From: Minisyncoccota bacterium | GTDB lineage: Bacteria > Patescibacteriota > Minisyncoccia > Phycocordibacterales > PALSA-1337 | Reading direction: 5' to 3' | Assembly (NCBI GenBank): GCA_036517115.1 | Contig: DATDYB010000005.1 | Location: forward strand, 18,970 to 82,969 | Length of the DNA stretch: 64,000 nucleotides | Part shown: positions 4,866-23,088 of the stretch, piece by piece | Position numbering within the stretch: the first letter of the stretch is position 1 | How the letters are laid out: the number at the start of each line of letters is the position of its first letter | Notes under the pieces: model-generated | What the model was told of the DNA's origin: nothing | The model's input: only the letters and a program-made list of their open reading frames with translations | The model's database searches: none | Made by a program: the position numbers and the translations under genes

Positions 4866-5110
4866 GGAAATTGCACGCGTATTCCCTAACGAGGTAACGT
4901 TTCACCGCAATATGCAAAAAAGTGTGCGTCATCCCAGTGCCGACATTGCCTAGCCGTTGGGGCTTGGTCCCCACGGTACTGGTGCCTTATGGGACATGCT
5001 CTGAAGAGCGGCAATGTCGGGAGCGGGACGGCCAAGTCTTACCAACTTTTTTGCATATTGCGGTGTGCTTTACTGAATTAACTCGTCAGGGAATACGTGT
5101 GGGAAATTGC
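4866..5110. repeat. extended intergenic palindromic element A (family 1): 21-bp perfect inverted repeat 4903-4923/5046-5066 (CACCGCAATATGC-AAAAAAGT ... ACTTTTTT-GCATATTGCGGTG) with nested inner stems, flanked by further imperfect inverted repeats
   Basis: Read directly. Same architecture (CACC outer stem / A6 / GC-rich structured core / T6 / outer stem) as elements at 14304-14407 and 23022-23088. Lies between the ABC exporter stop and the SDR start, so it could act as a bidirectional intrinsic terminator. Confidence 0.6.
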
Positions 5111-5115
5111 CTCCA

Positions 5116-6945
5116 CTATTTGATATTGTGCGTATTCCAGAAATATGAATTTTTATCCCGAAGCAGGTCCGCCGGAACGCCTGTCTCAATAATTTTTCCC
5201 TTATCAAGGACGACGATCCTGTCGGTGTTCATGATGGTACTAAGCCGGTGAGCAATGATAATGACGGTAAGCTTGCCGCGCAGATCCTCGATGACCTTTT
5301 GAATTTTTGACTCCGACTCGTTGTCGAGCGCGCTCGTCGCTTCGTCAAAGACCAGTATAGCCGGATTCCGAGCAAGCGCCCGAGCGATGACGATGCGTTG
5401 CCGTTGCCCTTGGGAAAGGGTGACGCCTCGTTCGCCGATCACAGTGTCATATCCTTGCGGCAAATCGGCGACGAAATCATCGATGTATGCCGCTCGCGCC
5501 GAATGTTTGATCCTCTCGTCGGTAATGGCTTCATCGTAGAAACGGATATTACTCGCGATGGTATCGTTCATCAGAAAAATATCCTGCGGCACATAACCGA
5601 TATTTTTTCTCCACAAAGAAAGATCGATTCCGTCCGCGGTACTGCCGTCAACCATGAGCCGACCTGCCTGGGGAGTAAAGAGACGCAACAAGATGTCGAC
5701 GAGTGTCGTCTTGCCTCCGCCGGATGGGCCGATGAGACCGATCATTTCGCCTCGTTTGACTGAAAATGTCACGTCGTCGAGCACTTTCCGCGAATCATCA
5801 TAGTCAAAACAAAGGTGATCGAACCGAATCTCTTTCTCGAACCTGAACAGAGCTTTTCCGTCCCTGTTTTCGGCCGCTTTTTTCGAGTTTTCGGTGAATT
5901 CCAAAATGGCCTTGAAGTATGGATAAGAATCATTGATGACGTGGATATGCCGTTGAAACTTCTGCACATAGAGAAAAATTTGCTGGATGAGATACACGGT
6001 CGCCGCCATAGCGGCCAGATTGAAATTCGGCGTCTTGTAGGCAAAAGCGAATATACCCATCACGAATATGAGTCCGAGGGGCTGCATCAAGGAAGGCGGT
6101 AACACTTTCAAAAGGGAGGCCTTGATCTTATAGAGCTTGAGGGTGTTGAAATACGAATAATCTTTGGCGATGATATTCTCTTCCACCCCCATGGACTTCA
6201 ACGTTTTCATACCGAGAATATTTTCGCTGATATGGTGCGCGATGTCACGATTCACCGCTTCCGCTTGTCTCGCGATCCGGCGAGTTCGAACGAGCAGCGG
6301 TTTAGCCACGAAAAGAAACAACACTCCGACCATGATGGTAAGCACGGTGATTGGAAAAGAAATATTGATCGCGACCGCGCTGTACATGATGAGGCTTGCG
6401 ACGACGACGATCAGCGCGCCGAAGTTGTTAAGCAGTAACTCGCAATACTCAATGTTGGTGAGCACCATGGTGTTCAAATGCCCGAGCCGCTCTCGGAGGA
6501 GGTACGGCCAGCCGGCTTTCATGGTGTGGCGAAGGACCCTCCGTCGTGTCTTTTCCGTATAATCCGCGGTGATTTTTATGGAGATATAATCCGCGAACAC
6601 CACCATGAACGTTTTCATCACGAACAACAAGACAACGAGGATAAGCAGATACTTGAGGCGGAATTCGATATTAAAGTATTCGAACGCCTGAACAATGGTT
6701 TTTGAAATCACGTCGTCGCCACTGTTGCCGTTTCCACTGATGAATGAAAAAATTGGAATAAACGCATTAATACCGATGCCCTCTAAGAGCGCGCTAAAAA
6801 ACCCGGCGACCGCGAGCAGCGTGATTTTCCATTTATACTCTCCGAAGCCTTTATGGAAGGACTTTAAAAATGCGAAAAAATTGGTGCGCTTGAAATATGC
6901 GATCAACATGATGTCGATAATACCCCGCTTAATCTTATTTGTCAA
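5116..6945 (-). CDS. ABC transporter, fused permease/ATP-binding (MsbA/exporter type)
   Basis: 609 aa. N-terminal multi-TM region, Walker A GPSGGGKTT, ABC signature LSQGQRQRIVIARAL and Walker B ILVFDEATSALD. Confidence 0.85.
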   Translation of the reverse strand: MTNKIKRGIIDIMLIAYFKRTNFFAFLKSFHKGFGEYKWKITLLAVAGFFSALLEGIGINAFIPIFSFISGNGNSGDDVISKTIVQAFEYFNIEFRLKYLLILVVLLFVMKTFMVVFADYISIKITADYTEKTRRRVLRHTMKAGWPYLLRERLGHLNTMVLTNIEYCELLLNNFGALIVVVASLIMYSAVAINISFPITVLTIMVGVLFLFVAKPLLVRTRRIARQAEAVNRDIAHHISENILGMKTLKSMGVEENIIAKDYSYFNTLKLYKIKASLLKVLPPSLMQPLGLIFVMGIFAFAYKTPNFNLAAMAATVYLIQQIFLYVQKFQRHIHVINDSYPYFKAILEFTENSKKAAENRDGKALFRFEKEIRFDHLCFDYDDSRKVLDDVTFSVKRGEMIGLIGPSGGGKTTLVDILLRLFTPQAGRLMVDGSTADGIDLSLWRKNIGYVPQDIFLMNDTIASNIRFYDEAITDERIKHSARAAYIDDFVADLPQGYDTVIGERGVTLSQGQRQRIVIARALARNPAILVFDEATSALDNESESKIQKVIEDLRGKLTVIIIAHRLSTIMNTDRIVVLDKGKIIETGVPADLLRDKNSYFWNTHNIK

Positions 6946-6983
6946 ACCTAAACTTTGAATTCTGGCCTGAGGTGCAACGCACC

Positions 6984-7976
6984 CTAGCGAACGCTCATCC
7001 TGCTTACGTTATCCCCCATGAGCGTCTCGTGAATATGCCGCCATTTCGCGTCATAAGGGAAATCGTACGCGCTCAACATTTCGTTTTTCTCCCGACGGTG
7101 CTCGGCATTCGAACTGAAAAAATGGGTATCGCTGAACGATTGCATGAATTCAAAATAATCGGCGATAATATTCTTTGATGTTTCTACCAGGGAGTGAGTG
7201 TTGATGAACAGTTCGATATGTCCGTATCGTGGCAATCCTGATTTCAGAAAACGCTGATAGTTTTTGAAACTGACAAAAATGATATATTTCCCGCCCTCAT
7301 CGAGGGATCGCAATTCCTCCAAAGACTCGAGGTACACCAGACCGTATCCTTTAGCCGATCGCGAATTCGATAGATATGTCATGGCTACGGAAAGCGTTTC
7401 AAACAAGTCAATAATAAAATATCTCGAGGTGTTGTTATTGAGCAGAAAAAATTCGCACATACCTCCATACCCTCCCCCGATCTCGCAAACATTCTTAATA
7501 GTGTCGGAAGCGGCGTGTGAAGCTATGAAATTGTTGAATATGGCATATTTTCTGATGTTAGCGTTAAAAAAGAATATGCTTGTCCCTTCCCGTTCCTTTC
7601 TTCGGAAAGAGTAATAGAACTCTGAATGGACGGGGTCAAACGCCGGAAACCGGAGACCCGAGTCGCATAAGAGATCGAAATCTCTGCGGAAGGCGGATGC
7701 TTGCTTTTTCTCCAGCAGCGATATTTTTGGCCATAGATATTTTTTTAAAAAGAATCCGACATGCAAAGTATCGTACGGGTAGGGCCTCGGTCTAAGGTTT
7801 TTTTCAGGCGGTTCAATAAGCCCTGCGCGAAAACTATTGTTATAAAAATGGAGCAGATCGGCAAGATCATGTCTGTCCGCTTGACGCGGATCCCACGTGC
7901 CAGTGTTGCTGAGATCCAGTTCGCCATCATATTTTTTTTCTATGAACGCATGAACGATGTCGGCAGTAATTTTCAT
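6984..7976 (-). CDS. hypothetical protein, possible class I SAM-dependent (sugar O-)methyltransferase
   Basis: 330 aa. VCEIGGGYGGMCEFF resembles methyltransferase motif I. Weak call. Confidence 0.35.
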   Translation of the reverse strand: MKITADIVHAFIEKKYDGELDLSNTGTWDPRQADRHDLADLLHFYNNSFRAGLIEPPEKNLRPRPYPYDTLHVGFFLKKYLWPKISLLEKKQASAFRRDFDLLCDSGLRFPAFDPVHSEFYYSFRRKEREGTSIFFFNANIRKYAIFNNFIASHAASDTIKNVCEIGGGYGGMCEFFLLNNNTSRYFIIDLFETLSVAMTYLSNSRSAKGYGLVYLESLEELRSLDEGGKYIIFVSFKNYQRFLKSGLPRYGHIELFINTHSLVETSKNIIADYFEFMQSFSDTHFFSSNAEHRREKNEMLSAYDFPYDAKWRHIHETLMGDNVSRMSVR

Positions 7977-8066
7977 AAAAATTTCGAGTATCTTAAATTA
8001 TAGCATTACGTTATCGCTCCATGCAATTTTCCCTTACGCATGGATTTTGTCATGATACGAAACATA

Positions 8067-8097
8067 AAATGTTGAACACCGAGTGTTCAACATTTTA
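8067..8097. promoter_or_regulatory. perfect 13-bp-arm palindrome AAAATGTTGAACA-CCGAG-TGTTCAACATTTT in a divergent promoter region (copy 1 of the AACACCGAGTGTT motif)
   Basis: Read directly. Sits between the divergent starts of genes at 7976 (-) and 8136 (+). Related copies at 22976-23010, 43428-43458 and 23230-23244. Confidence 0.5.
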
Positions 8098-8135
8098 TGA
8101 ATATTTGGCAGATATGGCTTCAGTTGCTATGATGC

Positions 8136-9659
8136 TTGCATATGAAAATATGCTTCTTTTTACAGAGACGCTTCGCGTCGATCGGACACGCGCTCGCGTG
8201 CAACCTGAAAGAGCGTCATGGCATCAAAGATTTCTGCGCCTATGTCAGTATGCGAGAGAGCTATGAATTTCTGACCAACCAGACGGACATCGCCTACACC
8301 TCACTCCTCTCCGACGAAGATATTCACAAAAAAATGAAAGACGAAAAACTCGATATGGAGTATCTCAAGAACCTCGAACGAGAATATGGAAACCCCAATC
8401 TGTGGCCGTATCTTTTCATCGACCGAATCGTCATGCACGGCCAGCTTATCCGCGAATACCCACACGACCGGCCGCTCTACACCGAGGAAGAAATGCTTCG
8501 ACTTCTCCAAGTTACCGCCAAGGAGATTATCGGCTTTCTCGATCGGGAGAAACCGGACGTGCTCGTTATCTCCGTAGTGGCTTCCCTTGGAAGCTCACTC
8601 CTCTATTTCATCGCTCAAAAGAAAGGCATAAAAACCATTAACCTTGAACAAACAAGGATCGGCAATCGCATCGCTCTTTCGGAGAGTTATAAAAATTTCA
8701 CCTGGGCGACCAAACGCGCTCGCAATAGAGAAGTGATCTTCGCGCCGTCAGTTATGAAAGACGCCCGCGCGTACATAGAACGGTTCCGCGCCAAACCGAC
8801 CGCATACAACTCGGTATACGATCCCGAAAAGAATCAGGTCAACCGCCGCTCGCAACTGCGATTTCTCCGCCCCGCCAATCTAGCATGGAGCATACTCTGG
8901 CACGCCAAGGAACTGTATCGCGATATCCGAAAAAAAAATCGCGATTTCGACGATGTGCGAATATGGTGGCTCCTGTGGGACAAAGTCAAACGCAAGGCAA
9001 GGACGATGCGCGGATATAACGACCTCTACAGCAGTGTTGATTGGAATAAGCCGTTCGCCTTTTATCCACTACATGTTGATCCTGAAATGGCCACCATGCT
9101 GCTCGCTCCGTGCTACACTAATCAGCCGGAGCTCATCCGCCAGATCGCTAGGGCGCTCCCTGTCGGCTACACGCTCTATGTTAAAGAGCATGTGGTGATG
9201 TCAGGATATCGGCCACGCTCCTATTACAGAGATATCGTCAAAATTCCAAACGTAAAACTGGTGCATCCGGCAGTGCGGGGATTTGATCTCGCCAAGGCGG
9301 CGAACATCGTTGTTACGATTTCAGGCACGGCCGGTTTCGAGGCCGTGATACTCGGCAACCCAACAATCACCTTCGGCGAAATATTTTATAATGACCTCTC
9401 ATTCGTCAAGCGGATCCGAAGCATCGAAGAACTTCCTTTCGTCATACGAGATCAGCTGAATCATTTCAAATGCGATGAAGAGGAGCTGACGCGGTATGTC
9501 GCGGCGCTTTTTGAAGAGTCCGTTGATGTTGACTATATGGACTTATGGCTCAACGCGAAATCAGATGAGGAGATCAGGCGCAATGCGGGAATAACGCGGT
9601 TGGCCGATTTATTGGCTAAGAAAATACTTGCGGTGACGGACAATACAACTAAATTATGA
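8136..9659 (+). CDS. Capsule_synth-family (KpsS/KpsC-like) polysaccharide biosynthesis protein, putative ulosonic/nonulosonic acid transferase
   Basis: 507 aa. C-terminal region ...LYVKEHVVMSGYRP...IVVTISGTAGFEAVILGNPTITFGEIFY matches the KpsS/KpsC/LpsZ pattern (KEHP...T.nST.G.EAl.lGkPv.t.G...Y). Confidence 0.5.
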   Translation: MHMKICFFLQRRFASIGHALACNLKERHGIKDFCAYVSMRESYEFLTNQTDIAYTSLLSDEDIHKKMKDEKLDMEYLKNLEREYGNPNLWPYLFIDRIVMHGQLIREYPHDRPLYTEEEMLRLLQVTAKEIIGFLDREKPDVLVISVVASLGSSLLYFIAQKKGIKTINLEQTRIGNRIALSESYKNFTWATKRARNREVIFAPSVMKDARAYIERFRAKPTAYNSVYDPEKNQVNRRSQLRFLRPANLAWSILWHAKELYRDIRKKNRDFDDVRIWWLLWDKVKRKARTMRGYNDLYSSVDWNKPFAFYPLHVDPEMATMLLAPCYTNQPELIRQIARALPVGYTLYVKEHVVMSGYRPRSYYRDIVKIPNVKLVHPAVRGFDLAKAANIVVTISGTAGFEAVILGNPTITFGEIFYNDLSFVKRIRSIEELPFVIRDQLNHFKCDEEELTRYVAALFEESVDVDYMDLWLNAKSDEEIRRNAGITRLADLLAKKILAVTDNTTKL

Positions 9660-10855
9660 AAATCACCTTCATCACCCCTAAAATAAATTTCGTCTCGGCC
9701 GGCGGCTCGGTCTTCGATATTGATCTTAAAATGAAGGCGTTTATGAAAATGGGAGCGGATATCCGATGCGTGACGCCCTTTTCCGACGACAACGACATGC
9801 CACAGAAACCGCCCTACCCCGTGATCGAAGAGCTCATCGCTAGACGAGGGCTCGCGGGCATCGCATGGGGCGTATATAAAATTTTGAAAAAATACGAAAA
9901 GGGCACGGACTTTTTCCATATTGACGGTCATATTTATTTTTACGGCGCGGGACTCTACAAACGTCTCGGCGGGAAAGTTCCCATCATTGCCTTTTTCAAC
10001 CGCGAGCAGCCCATCTGGGGACACGACAACCCGAAATATTCATTTGGTATGTTCGACGAGCCGGCGGACGCGCGATGGTGGAGAAAACTGTGGCTAAAAC
10101 TTCGGTATCAGATTGAGTCAAAAATTGGCACCTGGCTCGCCAACGCGATTGAGATCGGCACCTTCCATACCCCGACTCTCCAGAAGCGCTACAATGATTT
10201 CGGATTGCATATACAGTATCAACTCATCAATCCTGACTTGGCGGGCATTGACACCAAAGGTGCTTCTCGCAGTGTCGCCTCTTTCACGCATACGCCACTT
10301 CGGCTTGCCGCGGCGGGACGGCTCATTCCCACTAAAGGATTTGATCTTCTCTTCAAAGCTTTCTCGCTTGTACCACGCCGACAACGATTCACGCTAACCC
10401 TTGCCGGCGAAGGGCCTGATGAACCGCGCCTCCGAAACCTCGCCAAGGAATGGGGTATTGAAAAAGAAGTGAGCTTCACCGGCTGGCTAACCCATGACAA
10501 ACTCTTCCCCTTCTTTGAATCATCCGACGTGTTTCTCATGCCGCGTTGGCGGCCGGAACTTTCTTCGGTCGTGCTTATGGAAGCGATGTCCCACGGACTG
10601 GTGGCAGTAGTGCCGAAAGGTGGCGGGCTCGAATGGGCCGGCGGCAAAGCCATCGTCGGTTTTGATTTCGACGATCCGGAGAGTCTGGCTCGGGCAATTG
10701 ATTCTCTCGGCAATCCGGAATTTTTGGCGGAGAAATCCGCGGCCATCGGCAAGCGCATCGAATTTCTGCATTATGAAAATTGGTTGCCCGTCACCTATCT
10801 CTTTATGAAAAAAGTGTTGGCTGAAAAAAACAAAACAAAAAGAGCAGGACGCTAA
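9656..10855 (+). CDS. glycosyltransferase family 4 (GT-B, group 1)
   Basis: 399 aa. C-terminal domain LTLAGEGPDEPRLRNLAKEWGIEKEVSFTGWLTHDKLFPFFESSDVFLMP...VVLMEAMSHGLVAVV. Confidence 0.8.
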   Translation: MKITFITPKINFVSAGGSVFDIDLKMKAFMKMGADIRCVTPFSDDNDMPQKPPYPVIEELIARRGLAGIAWGVYKILKKYEKGTDFFHIDGHIYFYGAGLYKRLGGKVPIIAFFNREQPIWGHDNPKYSFGMFDEPADARWWRKLWLKLRYQIESKIGTWLANAIEIGTFHTPTLQKRYNDFGLHIQYQLINPDLAGIDTKGASRSVASFTHTPLRLAAAGRLIPTKGFDLLFKAFSLVPRRQRFTLTLAGEGPDEPRLRNLAKEWGIEKEVSFTGWLTHDKLFPFFESSDVFLMPRWRPELSSVVLMEAMSHGLVAVVPKGGGLEWAGGKAIVGFDFDDPESLARAIDSLGNPEFLAEKSAAIGKRIEFLHYENWLPVTYLFMKKVLAEKNKTKRAGR

Positions 10856-10898
10856 ACGCAAAATTGATTTCTAGTCGCCTGTCCTATATAGTAGTGGA

Positions 10899-12032
10899 AT
10901 GTCAAAAGTGGCTCTCATTAGCGGTTCAGCGGGTTTAATTGGCTCTGAGGCAGCCCGATTTTTCGCATCTAAAGGATTTCTCATTGTCGGTATCGACAAT
11001 GATATGCGCGCATATTTTTTTGGTAAGGAAGCGAGTACAGATTGGAATCGGGTGCGTGTTGAAAAAAAACTTGGTAAACAATACCTCCATTACAATGTGG
11101 ATATTCGAGACAACACTGCCCTCGAAAAAATTTTCAAAAAACATCAATTTAACATCATCATTCATACCGCTGCACAACCTTCCCACGATTGGGCAATGAA
11201 GGAACCTTTAACCGACTTCACGGTGAATGCTCTTGGTACTCTCCATATGCTCGAACATATGCGCAAATATTCACCCAAAGCCACCTTTATCTTTACCTCG
11301 ACCAATAAGGTGTACGGCGATCTGCCAAATGAGCTACCACTCATCGAAGGTGAGCAGCGTTTCGAGATCGACAAGAACCATTCATATCATAAGCATGGTA
11401 TCGACGAAACAATGAGTATCGATAACTCTATTCATAGTATTTTTGGGGCATCTAAGATAGCAGCGGACATCTTAGTGCAGGAGTATGGAAAATATTTTAA
11501 ATTAAATACTGGCGTGTTTCGAGGAGGCTGTCTCACCGGACCCTCACATAGCGGTACAACACTCCATGGATTCTTATCATATCTAGTAAAATGCATTGCA
11601 ATAGGTAAAAAATATACGATTTTTGGCTACAAGGGTAAACAAGTGCGTGATAACATCCACGCCTTTGACCTTATCAATATGTTCTGGCACTACCACCAGA
11701 AACCACGCAAGGGCGAAGTTTACAATGCTGGCGGCGGTAGACATTCAAACATTTCGATGAAGGAGGCGATTAAAAAAATTGAAAAAATATTAAGGAAAAA
11801 AGCTATTGTTGAATACCATGACAAGCCGCGCACAGGTGATCATATCTGGTATATTTCAGATGTCAGAAAATTTAAAGAGCATTATCCGAAATGGTATTAT
11901 AGCTATTCGATCGACGATATACTCGCTGAACTCTGTAAAGCGTATACGGTCAAGTCGCCAAAGCGGAAAACTTCCACTGGTTTAAGTGAGCGCAAGAGGC
12001 GTAGATCGAAGGGTCGTGTGGTGACAAAATAA
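10899..12032 (+). CDS. NAD-dependent epimerase/dehydratase family protein
   Basis: 377 aa. N-terminal [22 protein letters not shown] Rossmann motif and YGASKIAAD catalytic YxxxK. The last ~40 codons overlap the convergent gene 11903-13663. Confidence 0.75.
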
Positions 12033-14274: not shown

Positions 14275-14303
14275 GAGTTATATACCAGAATGATAACGCT
14301 CTG

Positions 14304-14407
14304 CCGCACCATGCAAAAAAGTTCGCGCTCCGGGCCGCTGGTGTAGGCAACGGCATCTGTAGACGAGCCGGCAGGCCACCGTCTACGAACTTTTTTGCAT
14401 GGTGCGG
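14304..14407. repeat. intergenic palindromic element B (family 1): 22-bp perfect inverted repeat CCGCACCATGC-AAAAAA-GTTCG ... CGAAC-TTTTTT-GCATGGTGCGG enclosing the core CGCTCCGGGCCG...CCGTCTAC
   Basis: Read directly. The right arm overlaps the last 7 codons and stop of rfbB. The core is shared with element C (AAAAAAGTTCGCGCTnCGGGCCG ... CCGTCTACGAACTTTTTTG), while the outer stems differ but stay complementary. Confidence 0.6.
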
Positions 14408-15405
14408 ATTCGCTGTACTGAATTATCTACTGAAGAGGTGCTTTTGTAAAACGCGAGGGTCTTTTTTAAACCAGACTCGAAAGAAATTTTTGGCGACCAG
14501 CCAAGCTCACGTTTGATTTTCGAACTGTCGAGCGAATAACGGAAATCATGCCCGGGTCGATCAGTGACGTATTCGATAGCCCCTTCATCCCTATCCGTCA
14601 AAGCGATGAGTTTCTTGGTCAAATCGATATTGCGTATTTCATTACTCCCACCAATATTATACACCTCGCCACTCTTCCCTCTCTGCCATACAGTGTCAAT
14701 GGCATCAATATTATCCTCGACATAAATCCAGTCGCGAACATTGTTTCCCTTTCCGTAGACCGGTACTTTTTCTCCCTTAAGAAGGCGCGTCATGAAGAGC
14801 GGGATGAGTTTGGTGGTATCCTGCCTCGGACCGTAGTTATTCGAGGACCTAGTGATAACCACATCCAGTCCGAAGGTTTTAAAATACGACCGCGCCAAAA
14901 GCTCTGCGCCGGCCTTCGAGGCACTGTAAGGATTGTTTGGAGCGAGTATACTCTCTTCGGTGAAGCTCTTTTCCCCTTCCTGAAGCGAGCCATATACTTC
15001 GTCGGTGGACACATGCAGGAATCGCGAGACACCGGTTTCTCGGGCAATGGACAGTAGATTGCCGGTACCTGCTACATTCGTTTCGATGAAGATCCCGGGA
15101 TTACTGATGCTCATGTCAACGTGGCTTTCCGCGGCGAAGTGAATCACTCCATTGGGCTTGTGTTTTTTAAAAAGTTTTAAAAGTGCGGCCTTGTCGCGGA
15201 TATCAGAGCGCTCGAAGGAAAAATTTCGGCTCTTTTGTATTTCCAAATTTTTCAAATTCCCCGCGTAGGTGAGCGAGTCCACGCACACGAAGTGAGTGTC
15301 CGTCCGCACAGGGACGTACTTATTAAGATAGTTGCTGCCGATAAAACCGGCTCCGCCGGTCACGAAAATAACAGATCCAGGTTTACTTTTTGCTTTTGAT
15401 GTCAT
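14383..15405 (-). CDS. rfbB: dTDP-glucose 4,6-dehydratase
   Basis: 340 aa. VIFVTGGAGFIGSNY, ...HFAAESHVD... and YSASKAGAELLARSY are typical of RfbB/RmlB. Confidence 0.85.
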   Translation of the reverse strand: MTSKAKSKPGSVIFVTGGAGFIGSNYLNKYVPVRTDTHFVCVDSLTYAGNLKNLEIQKSRNFSFERSDIRDKAALLKLFKKHKPNGVIHFAAESHVDMSISNPGIFIETNVAGTGNLLSIARETGVSRFLHVSTDEVYGSLQEGEKSFTEESILAPNNPYSASKAGAELLARSYFKTFGLDVVITRSSNNYGPRQDTTKLIPLFMTRLLKGEKVPVYGKGNNVRDWIYVEDNIDAIDTVWQRGKSGEVYNIGGSNEIRNIDLTKKLIALTDRDEGAIEYVTDRPGHDFRYSLDSSKIKRELGWSPKISFESGLKKTLAFYKSTSSVDNSVQRIRTMQKSS

Positions 15406-16132
15406 TGCTTTTTTCCCTCATATAGAGAGACGCGTCGAGGAGACTATCAAATGTGCCGATGTCGAACCACGTCTTTTTGAGTAATACTGATTTCATAGAC
15501 CCTTCTTTTATGTACTTGTTATTCAAATGAGTGATCTCATACTCACCCCGCTTGGAAGGTTTTTGACCCTCCAATTTCTTAAACACCGTATTGTCGTAAA
15601 GATAGAGCCCGATGACGGCGAGGTTTGATTTCGGCTTTGCCGGCTTTTCCTCAATTGACATGATGGCGCCGTTTTTATCAAGCTCCGCGATACCGAAGCG
15701 CTGTGGGTCGACCACTTCTTTCAGAAACACCACCGATCCGCCTTTGAAATTTTTCACCTGCGGCGCAATATCATCTTCGATAATGTTGTCTCCCAAATAG
15801 AACAGACAATCATCATTACCGACATACTCTTTAGCAATACAGAGGCCGTAGGCGAGGCCGTTGGCTTCATTCTGGATTCCATACACAATCTGAATCTGTC
15901 TGCCAGTACGCTTGGACTTAAATGCCGCTCCAGAGCCCAAGAGCTTTACGAAATTTTCTATGTGGTGGGGAGAGGTTACGATCATGATACGGTCTATACC
16001 GGCTTCCACTATTTTTTCAATGGCATAGTAAATGACCGGCTTATCATATAGCGATAAAAGATGTTTATTAGTGGCGAGAGTCAGTGGCGCGAGCCTGGTG
16101 CCGTTGCCGCCGGCAAGGATGACTGCTTTCAT
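15383..16132 (-). CDS. sugar-1-phosphate nucleotidyltransferase (glucose-1-phosphate thymidylyltransferase-like)
   Basis: 249 aa. MKAVILAGGNGTRLAPLTLATNKHLLSLYDKPVIYY is a G1P nucleotidyltransferase signature. Shorter than canonical RfbA. Confidence 0.7.
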   Translation of the reverse strand: MKAVILAGGNGTRLAPLTLATNKHLLSLYDKPVIYYAIEKIVEAGIDRIMIVTSPHHIENFVKLLGSGAAFKSKRTGRQIQIVYGIQNEANGLAYGLCIAKEYVGNDDCLFYLGDNIIEDDIAPQVKNFKGGSVVFLKEVVDPQRFGIAELDKNGAIMSIEEKPAKPKSNLAVIGLYLYDNTVFKKLEGQKPSKRGEYEITHLNNKYIKEGSMKSVLLKKTWFDIGTFDSLLDASLYMREKSNDIKSKK

Positions 16133-17097
16133 GGTTGTTTTTTCTTATGGTCGTTAATGATGTCTCTGATTATAAACCGCGGCCGGCCTTTTGTCTCCTC
16201 GAAAATACGGCCCACATATTCCCCCACAATGGAAAGTGTCAGGAGCTGGACCGCCGAAAAGAAAAGAATGAGGACGATGATGGTGGAGATGCCGCGCGGC
16301 GCGTCAGTCAAAAAGAATGAAACGACGTAATACAGCACGCCGATACATGCAAAAGCGGTAGTGCCAAGCGCCAAGTACGTTACCATCTCAAGCGGTTTGT
16401 AGGAAAAAGAGTAAATAGCCTTCCTTGCCCAACGAAAGCCTCCAAGGAATCCTTTCACCGAGACCCCCTTTCGGCCGTCGTAGCGCTCCGGACGCTCATA
16501 AGGAATGCCTACTGACCGATATCCCACCCACGCCCGCAAACCGCGGATGAAACGATCCCGTTCAGGCATGGCGTTTAGGTGATCGATCACCACCCGATCC
16601 ATGAGCGAAAAATCTCCCGCATCAAGCTGTACTGGTATATACGCCAGACGACTGAAGATAATATAGAAAAGATGATAGAAAAGCCACGCCTTAACTTTCC
16701 CCATGCTCGGCTCCCTTTTTTTTCTCGTGCCGTACACCACACTGAATCCCTTATTCCATTGCTTGACGAACTCAACGATGAGTTCCGGCGGATCCTGCAA
16801 ATCGCCGTCCATGATGACAACCGCGTCGCCGGAAGCCTGCGCCATACCACTCGTAAACGCCGCCTGCGCGCCGAAATTGCGCGAATGATTCACCACCGTC
16901 AGGGCGCTATCCTTGGCAGCCAGATCTCGAAGAATCATTTCCGAATTGTCGGGACTGGCATCATTAACATAGATGATTTCATACGAGGAGGTGATATCTT
17001 TAAGCACGCTCGAGAGCCTCTCATAGAGAGCGAGAATATTGTACTCGTCATGATAACACACCACCACCACTGAAATTTTTTTATGCGTCAGTTTCAT
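16129..17097 (-). CDS. GT2 polyprenyl-phosphate glycosyltransferase (GtrB/ArnC/DPM1-like) with C-terminal TM helices
   Basis: 322 aa. ISVVVVCYHDE...IIYVNDASPDNS...VIMDGDLQDPPELI, plus a C-terminal hydrophobic region. Confidence 0.8.
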   Translation of the reverse strand: MKLTHKKISVVVVCYHDEYNILALYERLSSVLKDITSSYEIIYVNDASPDNSEMILRDLAAKDSALTVVNHSRNFGAQAAFTSGMAQASGDAVVIMDGDLQDPPELIVEFVKQWNKGFSVVYGTRKKREPSMGKVKAWLFYHLFYIIFSRLAYIPVQLDAGDFSLMDRVVIDHLNAMPERDRFIRGLRAWVGYRSVGIPYERPERYDGRKGVSVKGFLGGFRWARKAIYSFSYKPLEMVTYLALGTTAFACIGVLYYVVSFFLTDAPRGISTIIVLILFFSAVQLLTLSIVGEYVGRIFEETKGRPRFIIRDIINDHKKKQP

Positions 17098-17831
17098 TTA
17101 AATAGGATATTTCGCAGTCGCGCGTACATTCGATCCGATAGGACGCGGCTCATGCGGGCAATCATCGTGGAGAAGAAAGGAATGTAATAGGTACTGCGAC
17201 GAGAAACGAGGATCTTTGAAATTTTTTCGGCTGCTTGCTCCGGCGTAATGACCGGAAACCCCGCCTTGCCTTCCCACATTGGGCTCGAAACAGGCCCCAG
17301 ATACACTGTGGAAAATAGCACGCCGGTGCCTCTCATGGCAAGGCCGAAGCCTCTGCTCACAAGTGATACGGCTGCCTTTGTGGCAGGATAGGCAATACCA
17401 CGCGAGCCTGGCCGGAATGCGGCAATGGAAGAAAGGATGACGAAGTGTCCGTTTTTCTTGGCAAGAAAATCGTCAAGAAACATCTCGATGCAGTGCATGA
17501 CGCCAAAAACATTCACCTCAAAGACACGTTTCCCTGCCGCAAAATCATGCCGGCCATCCTTTAGGTCATCATTGAAGATTGCCGCGGCGATAATGACCGC
17601 GTCAGCAAGAAATCCCTTCGACCGCATTGTTTCTGTGGCGCTCGCCATGTCTTCTACTTCAGAAATATCTCCGGCGCTCCATTGAAACGAGCCTGCGGGA
17701 AGGCTTCTCTCGAGCGACTGCAGCGCTTCCTTTCTTCTTGCGATTCCCCATACCCTATGACCCTCCCCCGCCAGTCGGCGTGAAAGTGCTAATCCTATCC
17801 CCGATGAGGCGCCGATAATGCAAATGTTCAT
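17094..17831 (-). CDS. SDR-family oxidoreductase
   Basis: 245 aa. MNICIIGASSGIGLALSRRL Rossmann motif and YPATKAA (YxxxK). Confidence 0.75.
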   Translation of the reverse strand: MNICIIGASSGIGLALSRRLAGEGHRVWGIARRKEALQSLERSLPAGSFQWSAGDISEVEDMASATETMRSKGFLADAVIIAAAIFNDDLKDGRHDFAAGKRVFEVNVFGVMHCIEMFLDDFLAKKNGHFVILSSIAAFRPGSRGIAYPATKAAVSLVSRGFGLAMRGTGVLFSTVYLGPVSSPMWEGKAGFPVITPEQAAEKISKILVSRRSTYYIPFFSTMIARMSRVLSDRMYARLRNILFK

Positions 17832-18763
17832 GGTTTTTGAGATTTTAGTAGGGTCTTGATTTTTTCCACCATCGCTTCGGGATGGAGACCTGCTTCTCGT
17901 AAAAGATAGTTTCGATCACCGACGCTTTTGATGAAACGATCGGGAAAACCGAAAGCATGGAATGATTTCTTAGGGTTTGATGAGGCGACCAAGAGCGACG
18001 CTACGGCGCTTCCAAGTCCTCCGATGACGCTATGTTCTTCGATGGTGCAAATAACTCTTGCAGTTTTTGCCCGATCCAGAACCATTTCTTCATCGAAAGG
18101 CTTCACCGAGGGCATACTCACCACCGCGACGTTTCCTATCTTTTCCTCTTCGAGGCGATGTGCGGTTTCCAAAGCGCAATCAAGGACATTGCCGGTGGAA
18201 ATAAGGAGAATGTCCGTACCCTCTTTAATCACGAATCCCCTGCCTACCTTGAAAGAAAATTCCTTTTTCGAATAGTCGAGCGGAGGATTTTTCCCAAGCC
18301 GGAGATACGCTGGCCCCTTTTGCTTCATCATCGCTTTCGTCGCTTCCAGCGCCTCCCACGAATAGGCTGGGGTGATGACGGTCATGTTTGGCAGCGCGCG
18401 CATAATGGCGACGTCTTCCACTGTGTGGTGAGTCACCCCGTGATGGGCATAGTTGAAACCCCCGCCGGTACCGACGATTTTGACGTCGAGATTATGATAG
18501 CAAACATCGGTGCGGATCTGCTCGAAGGGACGCATCGAGGCGAATGAAGCAATTGAGTAGGCGATCACCTTTTTACCCTCCAGGGCAAGCCCTGCCGCCA
18601 CGCCAACCATGGTGGCTTCGGCGATGCCGATATTTAAAAAACGGTCAGGAAAATTTTCTCTGATCGGTTCGAGCGCGTTGAAGCCAAGATCGGCGGTAAG
18701 GAAGATAATCGAACGATCGCGTTCCATTTCCACGAGCATTTGTTGTACGAAATCTTTTCTCAT
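17828..18763 (-). CDS. transketolase, C-terminal (pyrimidine-binding) subunit
   Basis: 311 aa. FLTADLGFNALEPIRENFPDRFLNIGIAEATMVGVAAGLALEGK. Confidence 0.8.
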   Translation of the reverse strand: MRKDFVQQMLVEMERDRSIIFLTADLGFNALEPIRENFPDRFLNIGIAEATMVGVAAGLALEGKKVIAYSIASFASMRPFEQIRTDVCYHNLDVKIVGTGGGFNYAHHGVTHHTVEDVAIMRALPNMTVITPAYSWEALEATKAMMKQKGPAYLRLGKNPPLDYSKKEFSFKVGRGFVIKEGTDILLISTGNVLDCALETAHRLEEEKIGNVAVVSMPSVKPFDEEMVLDRAKTARVICTIEEHSVIGGLGSAVASLLVASSNPKKSFHAFGFPDRFIKSVGDRNYLLREAGLHPEAMVEKIKTLLKSQKP

Positions 18764-19626
18764 GCGTTTTTTCGAATCTGCCGTGCGGATGCTTCGTCGG
18801 CCACGAAGTAATGAGCGGCGAGGGTATTTTCGATCAGGGGCACTCCTTTACCGGCAACAGTCCGCGCGATGAGCACTGTCGGCCGTGTCACTCCCGCAGC
18901 CTTACGGAATTTTTTTTCGAGATCCACGCAGTCATGTCCGTCGGCGTGCATCACCTCCCAGCCGAATGACTGCCATTGCGCGCCGAGGTCAAAGCGATTA
19001 GTTTCCCCTGTGGCGCCAAATCCTTGAAATTTATTGTCATCCACAATGGCGATAATATTCGAAAGTCCTCTGGAGCCGATGAAGAGCGCGGCTTCCCAAA
19101 TCGAGCCCTCGTTGCACTCTCCGTCTCCGATAAGCACATACACCTTTGAAGATGTCCCCGAAAGAGCGAGCGCCATGCCTGCCCCTATAGCAAGGCCATG
19201 ACCCAAGGAACCGGTAGAAACTTCGATTCCGGGAATTGTTCCGAAGGAAGGATGGCCGTGAAAGAGGCCGTCGTTTACGCGATAGCGCAAAAGATTCTTA
19301 ACAGGGAAAAAGCCACAAAGCGCCAGGGTGGCGTAGAGAGCGGCTGCACCGTGCCCTTTGGATAAAATGAACCGATCACGTCGCGGAAGTGCGGGTTTTT
19401 TCGGATCGATGGAAAGTATTCTTCCGTACAATACCGCCAGAATATCGCTTATGGAAAGAGCCGAGCCCGTCTCGCCCGACTTGCTTCTCCATGACATTTC
19501 AACCACCAGAGAACGTATTTCCTCTCCCATAGCCTCGGGGGCAAGGGCAAGGGCCGCCGAAGATTTTTTTTTGGTTTTCACTACGCGCATTGAAGCTATG
19601 CTATACGAGAGCGACAGTCCAGTCAA
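18760..19626 (-). CDS. transketolase, N-terminal (TPP-binding) subunit
   Basis: 288 aa. GHGAAALYATLALCGF...GSLGHGLAIGAGMAL...LIGDGECNEGSIWEAALF. Immediately upstream of the C-terminal subunit in the correct order. Confidence 0.8.
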   Translation of the reverse strand: MTGLSLSYSIASMRVVKTKKKSSAALALAPEAMGEEIRSLVVEMSWRSKSGETGSALSISDILAVLYGRILSIDPKKPALPRRDRFILSKGHGAAALYATLALCGFFPVKNLLRYRVNDGLFHGHPSFGTIPGIEVSTGSLGHGLAIGAGMALALSGTSSKVYVLIGDGECNEGSIWEAALFIGSRGLSNIIAIVDDNKFQGFGATGETNRFDLGAQWQSFGWEVMHADGHDCVDLEKKFRKAAGVTRPTVLIARTVAGKGVPLIENTLAAHYFVADEASARQIRKNA

Positions 19627-21386
19627 CGCGCACGCGACCTGTTATCGAGCTTATATATAGTGAATCGACCGTCGTCGTATACGAGCGAGGCGTTCGACAA
19701 CAGAGACGGCTTGAAGTGTCCCGTGTCGGTTTCTTTATCTGTAATACCATACGCAACCTTGTACGTCGTGAGTAACTCACTGATGTTCGGCCGAATATCA
19801 CGCTCATAGCGGCGGTATAGATCGTCAAAATATTCTTCGCCCGCGTATCCCACCGCTGTGGTCATACTTCCACAATCTCTGAACCAGTCCAGGCGAAACA
19901 TGCGACAAAGCTTTACCTTCCGGTTATACGTCCTGTATTTGTGCTCCGAATTCCCCACTCCCGCGTATTCTTGGTAGTCAAGGAAGAGATCGTTTTTTGT
20001 AAGATGAAAATAGTTCGCGGTAAGATAGCGCTCCTCGACCTCTCTCGATGACAGGAGATGTAGTGCCCCGCCCGCTCGCCACAGTACGTAATGGGGTGTA
20101 AGCATGGTGACATAGCGTACGATTCTACCATGAGGATCTCCCCATATGACCGAAGGTTCTCGCACGTTCTCCCGAAGCCATGAAAGGGGCTTTTCGAATC
20201 CTTGAATGTTCTCTGAAAGTTCCTTGCCGTAGGAGCTTAGGGGAATAACCGACGGACCATACTGGATGAGATAGCGAACATTGGCGACGAGAAGAAAACC
20301 GATAAGAACGGTCACTATCGCCAACTGTCGCGGTTTAAAAAGTTTGAGGTCTCCCCTCCTCTCCCACACAAGAGAAAAGAGGCAAGCGGTAGCAAGCGAG
20401 AGAAGATAAATAATGAATCGCTCGACATGCTGAGGCAATTCAAGATCCTTGCCGGTAATAAGGTTCGACCATGTGACCGCGACGGCGGCAAGGCCCACTA
20501 TGGAAAAAAACAGCGCACTTTGTCTGTCTATCATCCTTCTGAACATCAGCCCGACCAGGAAAATTATCAGAACGGGAAGGCAGGAATAGAGAGCGGCCGC
20601 CGTAGGTAGATGGGTATAGAGAAGACCGATCCGATCCATGGTCTGCCAATAGTCGGGATGGTTGAGTTGTTTCAACGTATACATGATAAGCGGTAGTGAA
20701 GCGAGGATAAAAATGCCGAAAACCCTGAACCATGCGGTTAAAAGATTTTTCCGACCGGAATACCAAAAGAGTGCGGCGGTGAGGAGAAACGCCACGACGA
20801 CGATCTGCCATGCGTACGTATAGACATAGGCCGAAGAAGCTCCGGCAATACCGAGAAAGAGCATTTTCTTGCGACTTTCCGGCTCTCTAAGCCAGAGGGC
20901 ATACGCAATGAGAAAAGCGATGAAAAAAGGAAATATGACCTGCATCGAAACAGGGCGGATGATAAAAAGGTAGAGTTCGAGATAGCAGAGCATTGAACCC
21001 GCGAGAGCCGCCTTCCTAAAACCGAGGACGGTTATCAAAACGTAGGTGAGCAAAAGAAAAATAAAGGACCACAAGAAAAGGTTGACATGAATGGCAGTCA
21101 TAAGCGGTAGACCGAGGATGAGCGGCACCGCGCTTATCCAATCCGCCGCAAAAAAAGCCGGAGCTGGTGCATCACGATGTTCAAAAAAATACGGGTTACC
21201 GAGAAAAGGATGGCCGTCCGCGACTTCCTGCATGCGGTCGTAATAGTAGTCGGTATCATTGTAGATTCCGACAGGCACGCGGGGAGATGCTCCGAGTGTT
21301 AAAAAGGTATGGATGAAAGGCAGTACCGTAAAAAAAAGTGCTGTAATCGCCAGTATGATGAGGTGTTTTGAAGATATGAATTTCAT
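19623..21386 (-). CDS. polytopic membrane protein, paralog of 11903-13663
   Basis: 587 aa. Shared YY.DRMQEVADGH motif, ~12 TM and a C-terminal soluble domain. Confidence 0.5.
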   Translation of the reverse strand: MKFISSKHLIILAITALFFTVLPFIHTFLTLGASPRVPVGIYNDTDYYYDRMQEVADGHPFLGNPYFFEHRDAPAPAFFAADWISAVPLILGLPLMTAIHVNLFLWSFIFLLLTYVLITVLGFRKAALAGSMLCYLELYLFIIRPVSMQVIFPFFIAFLIAYALWLREPESRKKMLFLGIAGASSAYVYTYAWQIVVVAFLLTAALFWYSGRKNLLTAWFRVFGIFILASLPLIMYTLKQLNHPDYWQTMDRIGLLYTHLPTAAALYSCLPVLIIFLVGLMFRRMIDRQSALFFSIVGLAAVAVTWSNLITGKDLELPQHVERFIIYLLSLATACLFSLVWERRGDLKLFKPRQLAIVTVLIGFLLVANVRYLIQYGPSVIPLSSYGKELSENIQGFEKPLSWLRENVREPSVIWGDPHGRIVRYVTMLTPHYVLWRAGGALHLLSSREVEERYLTANYFHLTKNDLFLDYQEYAGVGNSEHKYRTYNRKVKLCRMFRLDWFRDCGSMTTAVGYAGEEYFDDLYRRYERDIRPNISELLTTYKVAYGITDKETDTGHFKPSLLSNASLVYDDGRFTIYKLDNRSRAR

Positions 21387-22234
21387 TTTTTTCTAGCGAT
21401 AATGAACATATTATCACGAGTGTTGAGGGAAATGGATATCCGCGAAAGCGCTCCCCTCCGGAACAGAAACGAGAGACGTTTCCAGAGTGATAATCCCTGC
21501 CATTTATATAGCATTTTGAAAATGTACTGTAGCGTAAACTGTTTGCCGATCGTGGTCAAGAGCAGTGTATCAAATCCCGCTTTTTCTAAAAGTGTGACGA
21601 TATTTCTACGGTTGAAATAGTAGAGATGCTCAGGTGGCACGATGAGATGCCATCTTTTCCCAAAAATTCTCGCCACATTACTACCTGCGTCGGGAGTGTT
21701 GATAACGAGAATGCCGCCCTCCGAGAGCAGCGCATGCGCTGCTGCGAGCTCCTGGTGAGGATTCTCGACATGCTCGATAAGATCAAGCATGGTGATGGCG
21801 TCAAACGAGACTTCTTTGGGAAGGGACTGGAGCGTGCCGGTAACAACATCGAGTCCTTTCTTCCTCCCGAGCGCCGCCGCATGCTCGGAAACCTCCACCC
21901 CCTTAACCTGCCATCCATCCTTCTGGGCAAGATCAATGAAGAATCCAGAGGCCGCACCGACGTCTAGCAGCTTTTTTCCGGCAGGGACATATGACCGAAT
22001 AAGGCGAAGATACCGCATGAAGGTCAGGATCATAGGCTCCTTGTCCGCATCGTAGTCAACGTAACCGAAGCCTCCTTTTGCTCCACCGAAATAGTCTTCA
22101 GAATAAACCATAGCCGCGTCCACGGTTGTCGGATAGACAAAAAGAAGTCCACACGATCCGCACTCGAAAATATCGCAATTATTTTTGCGAACAAAAAATT
22201 TGATGGTAATACTGCTACAAACAAGACATTTCAT
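21383..22234 (-). CDS. class I SAM-dependent methyltransferase with N-terminal Cys4 zinc-ribbon
   Basis: N-terminal CLVCSS...CGSCG and LLDVGAASGFFIDLAQKDGWQVKGVEVSE motif I. The ORF track start (22261) overlaps the upstream gene; the Met of MKCLVC at about 22234 is the likelier start. Confidence 0.7.
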   Translation of the reverse strand: MKCLVCSSITIKFFVRKNNCDIFECGSCGLLFVYPTTVDAAMVYSEDYFGGAKGGFGYVDYDADKEPMILTFMRYLRLIRSYVPAGKKLLDVGAASGFFIDLAQKDGWQVKGVEVSEHAAALGRKKGLDVVTGTLQSLPKEVSFDAITMLDLIEHVENPHQELAAAHALLSEGGILVINTPDAGSNVARIFGKRWHLIVPPEHLYYFNRRNIVTLLEKAGFDTLLLTTIGKQFTLQYIFKMLYKWQGLSLWKRLSFLFRRGALSRISISLNTRDNMFIIARKK

Positions 22235-22941
22235 ACTCGTTTTCGGAAAATCATTTTCCACGGTGCAATGATACCTTCACGAATAATGTGTGAGCTTAAT
22301 TTCGACTCCCCTTCCCGTCGCCGTTTAAAGACGATGGGCACTTCACTCATGCGGGCACCCTTCTTCCACAATGCGTATTTAAGCTCGATCAGGAAAGCAT
22401 AGCCAGACAGGTCAATACTTTTAGTGAAGTTGCTGTCAAGCATCGTTGTGCGGATAAGCATATAACCAGCAGTGAAATCCGTAAGTGGCATTCTAGTTAC
22501 AGCCCGACAATAGAAGCTTGCGAGCCGCGACAACACCCTCCGCCACAACTCCCATCCTTCCGTTCCAGAACCACCGCCAACGTACCGTGAACCGATCACC
22601 ATGTCGCTTGTTTCGGCTGCCTTGAGTATTGCGGGAAGATAGGAGGGGTGATGAGAAAAATCGGCGTCCATCATGACAATATGCTCGATGCCGACATCTT
22701 GAGACAGCTCCTCAAACGCGTGAAGATACGCCTTGCCCAGACCTTCTTTTTTCTCTCTCCAGAGGAGCGACACCTGCTTGTTCGAGGCGGCGATTCTTCG
22801 GACGACATCGGCCGTGCCGTCGGGGGAATTGTCGTCCACCACCATAATATGAATATGGGGCATCAGCTGGAGTACCTCCGGAATAAGCGCCTCAATATTA
22901 TTTCGCTCATTATAGGTCGGAATGACGATGACCGTTTTCAT
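22231..22941 (-). CDS. GT2 polyprenyl-phosphate glycosyltransferase (DPM1-like, soluble/short form)
   Basis: 236 aa. MKTVIVIPTYNERNNIE...HIMVVDDNSPDGTADVV...GLGKAYLHAFEE...VMMDADFSHHP. Confidence 0.8.
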   Translation of the reverse strand: MKTVIVIPTYNERNNIEALIPEVLQLMPHIHIMVVDDNSPDGTADVVRRIAASNKQVSLLWREKKEGLGKAYLHAFEELSQDVGIEHIVMMDADFSHHPSYLPAILKAAETSDMVIGSRYVGGGSGTEGWELWRRVLSRLASFYCRAVTRMPLTDFTAGYMLIRTTMLDSNFTKSIDLSGYAFLIELKYALWKKGARMSEVPIVFKRRREGESKLSSHIIREGIIAPWKMIFRKRV

Positions 22942-22975
22942 GCGAATCAGTATATTCTATTTCCTCCCCACCGCC

Positions 22976-23010
22976 AAATGTTAAACACCGAGTGTTGAAC
23001 AGTGTTGAAC
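22976..23010. promoter_or_regulatory. copy 2 of the AACACCGAGTGTT palindrome motif (AAATGTTAAACACCGAGTGTTGAACA, plus a tandem GTGTTGAACA), upstream of the GT2 gene start
   Basis: Read directly. Imperfect relative to copy 1. Confidence 0.45.
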
Positions 23011-23021
23011 AAAAAGCTCCA

Positions 23022-23088
23022 CACCCCGACAAAAAAGTTCGCGCTACGGGCCGACAGGCCTCCGTCTACGAACTTTTTTGTCGGGGTG
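23022..23088. repeat. intergenic palindromic element C (family 1): CACCCCGAC-AAAAAA-GTTCGCGCTACGGGCCGACAGGCCTCCGTCTACGAAC-TTTTTT-GTCGGGGTG
   Basis: Read directly. Same A6/core/T6 architecture and core as element B, with a different but perfectly compensatory outer stem. A short direct repeat CTCCA flanks it on both sides. Lies between the RT stop and the next gene. Confidence 0.6.

Follow-up and report, generated by a model that had tools for sequence, protein, structure and literature searches.

Introduction

Among the described systems closest to the elements reported here, SPRITE is a terminator-like interspersed repeat of less than 200 bp with AAAA/TTTT ends that lies near gene 3' ends, shows no clear target duplication, and was possibly co-opted as a terminator (PMC3049150). 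In REPINs, compensatory changes across the hairpin are common (PMC3116915), and the ends are formed by repetitive extragenic palindromic (REP) 16-mers with a GTAG or CGTC tag (PMC3733652). Here we analyze a set of intergenic hairpins in a 64,000-nucleotide stretch of a Minisyncoccota bacterium (assembly GCA_036517115.1, contig DATDYB010000005.1, positions 18,970 to 82,969), hereafter the window, in which an initial annotation had marked three elements, A, B, and C. Our preferred reading, which we hold at about even odds, is that these are three of at least seven copies of a modular, copied family of hairpin elements of the REP/BIME/MITE/SPRITE kind (BIME, bacterial interspersed mosaic element; MITE, miniature inverted-repeat transposable element), serving in this genome as terminators or insulators in both directions.

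BIMEs combine modules into mosaics. The attC sites of integrons are hairpins defined by their structure, 57–141 bp long, with a variable, sometimes branched end, and they stand between co-oriented genes. The host of the window is an uncultured bacterium of the Patescibacteria, or candidate phyla radiation (CPR), whose genomes are tiny and streamlined and are thought to hold little repetitive DNA. To our knowledge, almost nothing is known about how CPR bacteria end, process, or regulate their transcripts.

Results

Seven Related Hairpins in the Host Genome

The host DNA examined amounts to 81.3 kb and consists of the window and joined contig flanks (loci L070 and L074). Arms were located with a repeat finder and with a purpose-written scan for clamp (the variable stem outside the A/T tracts), A/T tract, and inner bases. 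Further copies had been named as the test of a family, and four more members were found. The resulting seven elements, five in the window (A, B, C, D, and F) and two just outside (E and G), measure 65–230 bp, have no coding capacity, and occur at a density of about one per 12 kb:

4903–5065, minus strand: element A, with perfect 21-nt arms at 4903–4923 and 5045–5065
4874–5101, unstranded: outer layer of A, with imperfect inverted ends at 4874–4897 and 5078–5101 (24 nt, 88% complementary)
4932–5028, unstranded: innermost palindrome of A, with arms at 4932–4950 and 5010–5028 (84% complementary)
14304–14407, minus strand: element B, with perfect 22-nt arms at 14304–14325 and 14386–14407
23022–23088, minus strand: element C, with perfect 20-nt arms at 23022–23041 and 23069–23088
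40221–40386, minus strand: element F, with a long, imperfect clamp whose 27-nt arms are 81% complementary, and with additional pairing
61958–62054, minus strand: element D, with perfect 21-nt arms
L070 17586–17650: element E, outside the window
L070 20069–20227: element G, upstream of secA, 94% identical to F

The repeat finder returned the three hairpins with complementary arms running through A6 and T6 that the initial annotation had described; its coordinates hold for B and C, and A ends at 5065 rather than 5066. In element A, CACCGCAATATGC-A6-GT ... AC-T6-GCATATTGCGGTG encloses a nested core of 121 nt; in B, CCGCACCATGC-A6-GTTCG ... CGAAC-T6-GCATGGTGCGG encloses 60 nt; and in C, CACCCCGAC-A6-GTTCG ... 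CGAAC-T6-GTCGGGGTG encloses 27 nt. The arms of these three copies thus comprise 9–13 variable bases, six A (or T), and 2–5 inner bases, with tracts of exactly A6 and T6. The claimed 9–13 bp of perfect pairing outside the tracts was measured as 13, 11, and 9 bp in A, B, and C, respectively, and 8–13 further bases pair outside the tracts across the elements. In element D, ACCATTCATC-A6-GAGAC ... GTCTC-T6-GATGAATGGT(G) surrounds a 55-nt core of two hairpins, and the interior of F reads A5-GTGGC, a core homologous to that of D, and then GCCAC-AT5. On both strands, A, B, and C fold far beyond shuffled controls (z −6.8 to −10.3; none of 200 shuffles was as stable).

The elements are also uniform in their placement. 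All seven are co-oriented with the downstream gene and lie 8–163 nt upstream of its start, and five of them begin within 65 nt of, or overlap, an upstream co-oriented stop codon (D is 129 nt away). Elements A and C lie between a minus-strand stop and the next start, as had been noted, whereas B overlaps the upstream stop at 14383–14385. A covariance model built from B, C, and E, termed R2, also recovers A and D at 33–34 bits with a preference for the minus strand (for A, 33.3 bits on the minus and 23.2 on the plus strand), which argues that all copies share one orientation, that of the downstream gene. The conserved CACC...GGTG ends of the earlier description survive in part: read in gene orientation, the 3' GGTG is present in five of five members, but CACC in only three of the five. 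In the same orientation, AGCG.A precedes the clamp and GGTG-YGGAGC follows it, and the recurrence of these short flank motifs implies a unit larger than the palindrome.

Copies Are Homologous and Mosaic

Exact modules of 12–48 nt are shared between copies in differing combinations, as in BIMEs, and those of 12–24 nt that connect A-B, A-E, B-C, B-E, and D-F-G have no other occurrence in the 81 kb. Elements B and C had been described as sharing their core ends, and indeed the window contains AAAAAAGTTCGCGCTNCGGGCCG and CCGTCTACGAACTTTTTTG exactly twice each, once in B and once in C (chance expectation 0.00 and 0.02); the core of B equals that of C plus a 33-nt insertion. Element A keeps a shared motif, as had been claimed, in that ATGCAAAAAAGT is common to A and B. 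Within the 81 kb, GTTCGTAGACGG is confined to B and C, GGTAAGACTTGGCC to A and E, and TAATTCAGTA.AGC, directly 5' of the clamp, to A and B, while GGCCCGGAGCGC occurs in B and E and, with one change, in C. Elements A and B moreover have the clamp CCGCA..ATGC in common, and D combines an E/B-like clamp with an F/G-like core.

Elements D, F, and G share the whole stretch from A tract to T tract at 85% identity. F and G, at unlinked loci, are 93.75% identical over 160 nt, non-structural positions included, which points to recent copying. Homology ends at the outer edge of the A/T tracts: cores are 85–95% identical, and the clamps outside them are unrelated or rearranged yet complementary. The copies are therefore homologous and mosaic, and cores have been copied or exchanged recently while clamps differ.

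Could the palindromes have been created during assembly? Assemblers can make palindromes, and a control locus (L049) carries a 79-bp inverted repeat at a contig end. The sequences discussed here, however, are found base-identical inside long contigs of at least five independent ENA and JGI metagenome assemblies, which argues that they are not assembly artefacts, and we assign that explanation a negligible probability.

Stems Change Only in Compensated Fashion

Between D and F, the core differs by 12 substitutions that all fall in two stems, P1 and P2, and are all compensated, while about 50 other positions are identical. P1 reads GAGAC/GTCTC in D and GTGGC/GCCAC in F, with the first tract pair changed as well, and P2 reads GGCT/AGCC and GCGC/GCGC, respectively. 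The clamps behave alike. Aligned, those of A and B give CCGCA[AT/CC]ATGC, and the opposite arm mirrors both changes; those of E and D differ by a 2-nt insertion that is present in both arms. In a five-sequence alignment that includes two other genomes and was fitted to the model, 20 of 35 pairs have changed on both sides, and 92.8% of cells are paired, compared with 41–57% when the partners are slid. Stems thus change only in compensated fashion. The clamps of A–E contain no G-U (G-T) pair in 101 bp, a feature that argues for a symmetric or templated constraint.

Indications of Insertion and Turnover

Element A is the sole copy with a clear pattern of terminal inverted repeats and target-site duplication: an 8-bp direct repeat, GGAAATTG, at 4866–4873 and 5102–5109 directly borders its outer inverted ends, and no second copy of these ends occurs in the 81 kb. 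Apart from CTCCA (5 bp) at C, no direct flanking repeats were seen at the other copies (B, D, E, F, and G). The CTCCA noted earlier is present on both sides of C, but its standing as a target duplication is doubtful, since it overlaps in part the flank motif GGTG-YGGAGC that C has in common with B, E, and G. A copy of A's innermost palindrome (78.6% identity over 103 nt) was noticed at 48120–48221, where it sits in frame inside a minus-strand open reading frame (ORF; 47484–49529) resembling a type IV secretion system coupling protein and encodes a Pro/Ser/Gly-rich stretch; it may have entered the gene as a palindromic insertion or, alternatively, have given rise to A's inner segment.

Element B holds the stop codon (14383–14385) of a dTDP-glucose 4,6-dehydratase-like ORF (14383–15405, minus strand). 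Together with its 5' flank, B encodes the last ~17 codons of this gene, with the tail SSVDNSVQRIRTMQKSS, and homologs stop about 17 residues sooner. The predicted protein is about 20 residues longer than its homologs, through a short N-terminal extension and this 17-residue C-terminal tail. In the dehydratase search, the next best relative is 67% identical, and no close relative was available for comparing the site of B.

Beyond the host, the comparison set consisted of five short loci from other Patescibacteria (L078, L079, L083, L084, and L085). In L078, a relative whose MurD is 92% identical to that of the window, D is absent from the orthologous site upstream of murD. This site in L078 carries, at 2259–2299, a perfect 19-bp palindrome related to a third palindrome type of the window, which is built on CCCAGCAC (AGCCCAGCACATT...AATGTGCTGGGCT) at 49575–49613.

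A covariance model of D, F, and G matches two further genomes. In L079 (Minisyncoccia, GCA_049287305.1), the match at 4323–4405 scores 35.5 bits and lies upstream of a small ORF and secA; in L085 (GCA_040384045.1), that at 3594–3688 scores 25.5 bits and immediately precedes murD. Background scores reach at most 16.7 bits across 420 kb of unrelated DNA and 15.7 elsewhere in the CPR loci. Inspection by eye identifies a sequence of L079 that likewise precedes murD (9689–9825) as the ortholog of the L085 element, enlarged by an insertion. MurD of L079 and L085 is 68% identical, and the clamps of the two elements are entirely different yet complementary. Both genomes carry the core in an orientation relative to murD opposite to that of D, and their homologs have the homopolymer tracts in T...A order. 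The murD-upstream element is absent from L084 and L083, which are as close to L079 and L085 (63–74% MurD identity) as these two are to each other. A second clamped family occurs at L079 9833–9973 and L085 6381–6500, non-orthologous sites, with a fully compensated stem swap.

Conservation in related genomes had been named as a test of the family, and the homologs in two other Patescibacteria genomes answer it for the D/F/G core; for the B/C/E-type core, no homolog was detectable in the loci examined. Three scans of viral contigs with core patterns gave no match. A metagenome-collection scan with CCGTCTACGAACTTTTTT gave 12 chance matches and did not recover B and C themselves; the host is therefore missing from that collection, and the negative is uninformative. 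One core type is shared with distant Patescibacteria, spanning lineages with MurD only ~31% identical. The direct repeat of A, the ORF extension at B, the lack of D in L078, and the patchy murD-upstream homolog together indicate that a part of the copies, at the least, arose by insertion or is subject to turnover among relatives.

Termination Explains Only Part of the Structure

Do the elements simply end transcripts? The initial annotation had proposed bidirectional Rho-independent terminators and had added that termination alone would not account for them. In seven of seven copies, A5–6 and T5–6 flank an inner stem of at least 2–5 bp, so that the A-tract/hairpin/U-tract layout of a bidirectional intrinsic terminator lies inside every host copy and can be read on both strands. 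Unlike plain terminators, which have a compact stem-loop (stem about 5–14 bp, loop 3–8 nt), the elements have branched cores of 27–121 nt, carry the additional pairs beyond the tracts, and share modules, and a consensus terminator scan calls none of them. Elements A, B, C, F, and G sit at the 3' end of a transcription unit, but E and D do not fit this pattern. E lies between divergently transcribed genes, with no upstream gene to terminate, and D lies ~95 nt downstream of a terminator that is kept in L078:

62149–62172, minus strand: canonical intrinsic terminator, not of the family, with a 10-bp stem followed by T7, belonging to the gene upstream of D

The presence of this separate, conserved terminator implies that D is not needed to end that gene. 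The positions of D and E and the overlap of B with a reading frame thus bear out the view that simple termination is insufficient.

It is in principle conceivable that ordinary bidirectional Rho-independent terminators evolved independently at each site and that their likeness is convergent. Each copy is, after all, a hairpin between A6 and T6, five of the seven lie near or across an upstream stop, and simple A6-hairpin-T6 terminators without a clamp do occur in the same 81 kb, although only two were found. The exact modules shared between copies contradict this explanation, as do E, which has no gene to end, D, which follows another terminator, and the T...A tracts of the homologs in other genomes. 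Clamps are also rare elsewhere. A genome-collection search with the pattern AAAAAAGTTCGN{27,57}CGAACTTTTTT yielded 53 unrelated A6GTTCG...CGAACT6 terminators from other bacteria of many phyla, the host not among them, of which only three show outer pairing of at least 6 bp; A/T-tract terminators thus do not bring a clamp with them as a matter of course. Since the 3' arm of the clamp lies beyond the U tract and would be untranscribed in a terminated RNA, termination presumably cannot select for it. We consider independent origins highly improbable and essentially excluded. An outward promoter in the 3' flank was considered as well and rejected, as hexamer matches are inconsistent between copies.

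Comparison with Known Repeats and Structure-Defined Sites

Like SPRITE, the elements fold like an oversized intrinsic terminator, have inverted ends with an A run and a T run, and lie near gene 3' ends. SPRITE differs in its unrelated sequence and host phylum, in being AT-rich, and in having one consensus without a variable clamp outside the A/T runs, whereas here the cores are modular and one core type is common to distant genomes. With REP, REPIN, and BIME sequences the elements have in common that they are extragenic palindromes forming long hairpins in single-stranded DNA or mRNA and showing compensatory changes; those repeats sit between co-transcribed genes and can attenuate transcription or stabilize mRNA. 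In REP and REPIN sequences the ends are conserved and the spacer varies, whereas here the ends, [C]ACC...GGTG or others, are variable and the conserved part is central, which sets the elements apart from tagged REP palindromes; no RAYT gene was found among the window ORFs scanned. MITEs such as Correia/NEMIS, ERIC, and RUP are likewise small, non-coding, multi-copy elements that form long hairpins and intrude into gene ends, and the family matches them in its dispersed small non-coding copies. MITE families, however, have conserved terminal inverted repeats and regular target duplication, whereas here the clamps are copy-specific and most copies lack a duplication. The earlier suggestion of a propagated, MITE-like family or a structured RNA is supported by the copies and homologs, but the classical hallmarks of MITEs are not found in the clamps.

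No gathering-level match to Rfam 15 exists in the window, and at E ≤ 5 no match overlaps any element; local scans returned spurious miRNA-precursor hairpins (14–30 bits, against gathering scores of 60–100), which were discarded. A structure linked to the diversity-generating retroelement (DGR) next to C is not indicated, as C is the one copy of the seven that adjoins it. Membership among retrons, DGR hairpins, ribozymes, attC sites, and REP sequences was weighed and rejected.

The attC sites, like the ends of IS200/IS605 elements, raise the broader question of whether the elements are DNA-level structure-specific sites, folding as a cruciform or on the single-stranded lagging-strand template and recognized by a recombinase, nuclease, or replication protein, with their terminator likeness incidental. 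Clamps that are strictly Watson–Crick on both strands, a structure conserved while its sequence is free, and the uniform orientation along a stretch of uniformly negative GC skew are all consistent with such a role, as is a Y1 transposase flanked by hairpins in a related genome (L085 12742–13368). The hairpins beside this transposase, however, are unrelated in sequence. Unlike attC, the elements have no RYYYAAC/GTTRRRY core sites (R/L boxes), no unpaired central spacer, and no extrahelical bases, their clamps being perfect duplexes without bulges; no integrase was found among the window proteins scanned, nor was a gene for an integrase or HUH enzyme present in the 81 kb of host DNA. The DNA between the elements consists of multi-gene operons of ~9 kb rather than cassettes. 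On balance, we consider a DNA-level site quite unlikely.

Genomic Context and Other Repeats

The named sequences nearest to MurD and the dTDP-glucose dehydratase belong to Nomurabacteria, Minisyncoccia, Paceibacterota, and Parcubacteria, and the host lineage is isolated: besides the 92% relative, MurD has no match above 33% identity. A minus-strand cluster for glycan and envelope biosynthesis makes up the left half of the window, and secA, secDF, and murB flank the window.

Element C begins 5 nt past the stop codon of the reverse transcriptase ORF of a complete DGR at 23094–25659 on the minus strand. The DGR comprises a target gene (25659 to 24901; 252 aa, no Pfam match) with a variable repeat at 25058–24931, a template repeat at 24615–24488, a candidate Avd ORF on the opposite strand (24118–24465, a weak bAvd match), and the reverse transcriptase (24152 to 23094) with the motifs LGNLTSQ and YADD. 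The two repeats differ at 16 positions, each of them an adenine in the template (11 A to G and 5 A to T).

Several other repeats were noticed. A palindromic pair at 54907–54993 and 56181–56267 (87 nt, 93% identical, with arms such as AATCTACAAATGGCTACGAAT) flanks an MraY-like glycosyltransferase gene and is unrelated in sequence to the A–G family. Palindromes and repeats of TGTTGAAC/GTTCAACA occur at 8063–8099, 22985–23015, and L070 17745–17805, upstream of a divergent gene pair at ~8.0 kb, a glycosyltransferase gene at 22941, and murB, and look like operator sites of one regulator. In L085, the Y1 transposase is IS200-like, possibly a RAYT, has the hairpin TGTCAAAGTGTCTCTTTGACA on both sides, and is absent from the syntenic site of L079. 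A conserved structure of ~90 nt with 29–30-nt arms (AAATTACTTTTATCTGTAGCGGGTGATCGC...) lies upstream of secA at L079 4180–4268 and L084 4787–4873, with no Rfam match at E ≤ 1. The control scan surfaced three nested double A6/T6 palindromes (AAAAAAGTTCGTCACAAAAAAGT...ACTTTTTTGTGACGAACTTTTTT) in a metagenome-assembled genome of Sodaliphilus sp. (Bacteroidota; L016 7214–7292, L050 1572–1650, and L056 2728–2806), a terminator-like repeat family unrelated to A–G.

Some 2.5–4 kb beyond the right end of the window, L074 carries a stand-alone bacterial 16S rRNA gene (3922–5471, 1355 bits) with an internal AT-rich hairpin insertion of ~100 nt and no 23S gene after it; a simple A6...T6 terminator flanks this gene. 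A tRNA-Ile(GAT) gene follows at L074 6405–6480, with a partial duplicate of its 3' part nearby.

Discussion

Our comparison of the seven copies and their relatives suggests the following model for a modular, copied hairpin family. Each copy is built of four layers: a structured core, complementary homopolymer tracts (here A5–6 ... T5–6), a variable clamp stem, and short conserved flanks. The family would spread or reshuffle at the DNA level as a non-autonomous palindromic element. Since every host copy has its tracts in the A...T configuration, a hairpin followed by U6 could form from either strand, and the inner part may act as a bidirectional terminator or insulator between envelope and glycan operons. 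The clamp cannot form in an RNA that ends at the U tract, which suggests that it stays complementary because the hairpin as a whole is constrained, either as read-through sense RNA or as single-stranded DNA. The likely means would be selection, helped by quasi-palindrome template switching, in which one arm is copied anew from its partner.

A number of observations weigh against this model. The clamps differ between copies, unlike classical terminal inverted repeats. Only A has clear direct repeats, those of C being doubtful, and the 81 kb showed neither a transposase nor a RAYT gene. Insertion into palindromes that already existed is unsupported, as no empty clamp-like palindromes occur in the same 81 kb, and the host copy counts themselves rest on only this much of the genome. 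The T...A order of the tracts in the L079 and L085 homologs cannot terminate transcription in either direction, so that termination is not a conserved property. Between these two genomes, the murD-upstream core is kept while the surrounding intergenic DNA is not alignable, and its repeated presence beside murD (in three genomes) and secA (in two) is also compatible with a host-functional element. Finally, the sense strand is the more stable in nine of 12 cases, and it holds 33 G-U pairs, compared with 17 for its antisense counterpart; in C and E, two extra G-U pairs lengthen the clamp on the sense strand only. Strand stability and G-U bias hint at a sense RNA or an equivalent single DNA strand rather than a symmetric palindrome, although they are not statistically decisive.

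These last points lead to the main alternative, which we consider rather unlikely, a host-functional, cis-acting structured RNA in which clamp and core form one long hairpin in read-through mRNA and the copies are paralogous regulatory elements. Transcribed together with the adjoining envelope genes (murD, murB, secA, and glycosyltransferases), such a hairpin could govern mRNA processing or stability, for instance as an RNase III site of ~20–22 bp, or could be a protein-bound regulatory leader. In addition to the sense-strand bias, this explanation would account for stems that covary while unpaired and junction nucleotides stay fixed, for perfect duplexes of 17–22 bp in five copies, for the co-orientation of all seven copies a short distance upstream of a gene, and for core homologs that lie beside murD and secA elsewhere in the Patescibacteria and score well above background. 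It is harder to reconcile with the opposite orientation of the core relative to murD in D and L085, and with the lack of the element upstream of murD in L084, L083, and the close relative L078. The near-identity of F and G outside structural positions speaks for recent copying, modules are shuffled between copies, and A has inverted ends with a direct duplication. A clamp of 101 bp in A–E without a single G-U pair would also be unusual for a stem under RNA-level constraint only, and no Rfam family matches.

We further entertain, as a tentative and somewhat doubtful possibility, that the elements belong to an undescribed, Patescibacteria-wide structured class with a conserved branched core, complementary homopolymer tracts, and a clamp that is rewritten wholesale but keeps its complementarity, representing either a new mobile hairpin element or a class of cis-acting RNAs of envelope genes. 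If mobile, its arms may be regenerated from one another via a single-stranded intermediate or template-switch copying; if a cis-acting RNA, it may be tied to murD, murB, secA, and glycosyltransferase genes.

What would either outcome mean for these bacteria? A mobile family would turn the architecture of REP/REPINs and MITEs around in an unusual way, varying at its ends and conserved in its centre, and its copies would be portable terminators. As RNA elements, the hairpins would constitute a new structured RNA class beside essential envelope genes. The family is also relevant to the question of what keeps long palindromes perfect, selection or templated correction. Either way, the elements offer a concrete and testable way into the transcription-unit boundaries and genome dynamics of an uncultured phylum.

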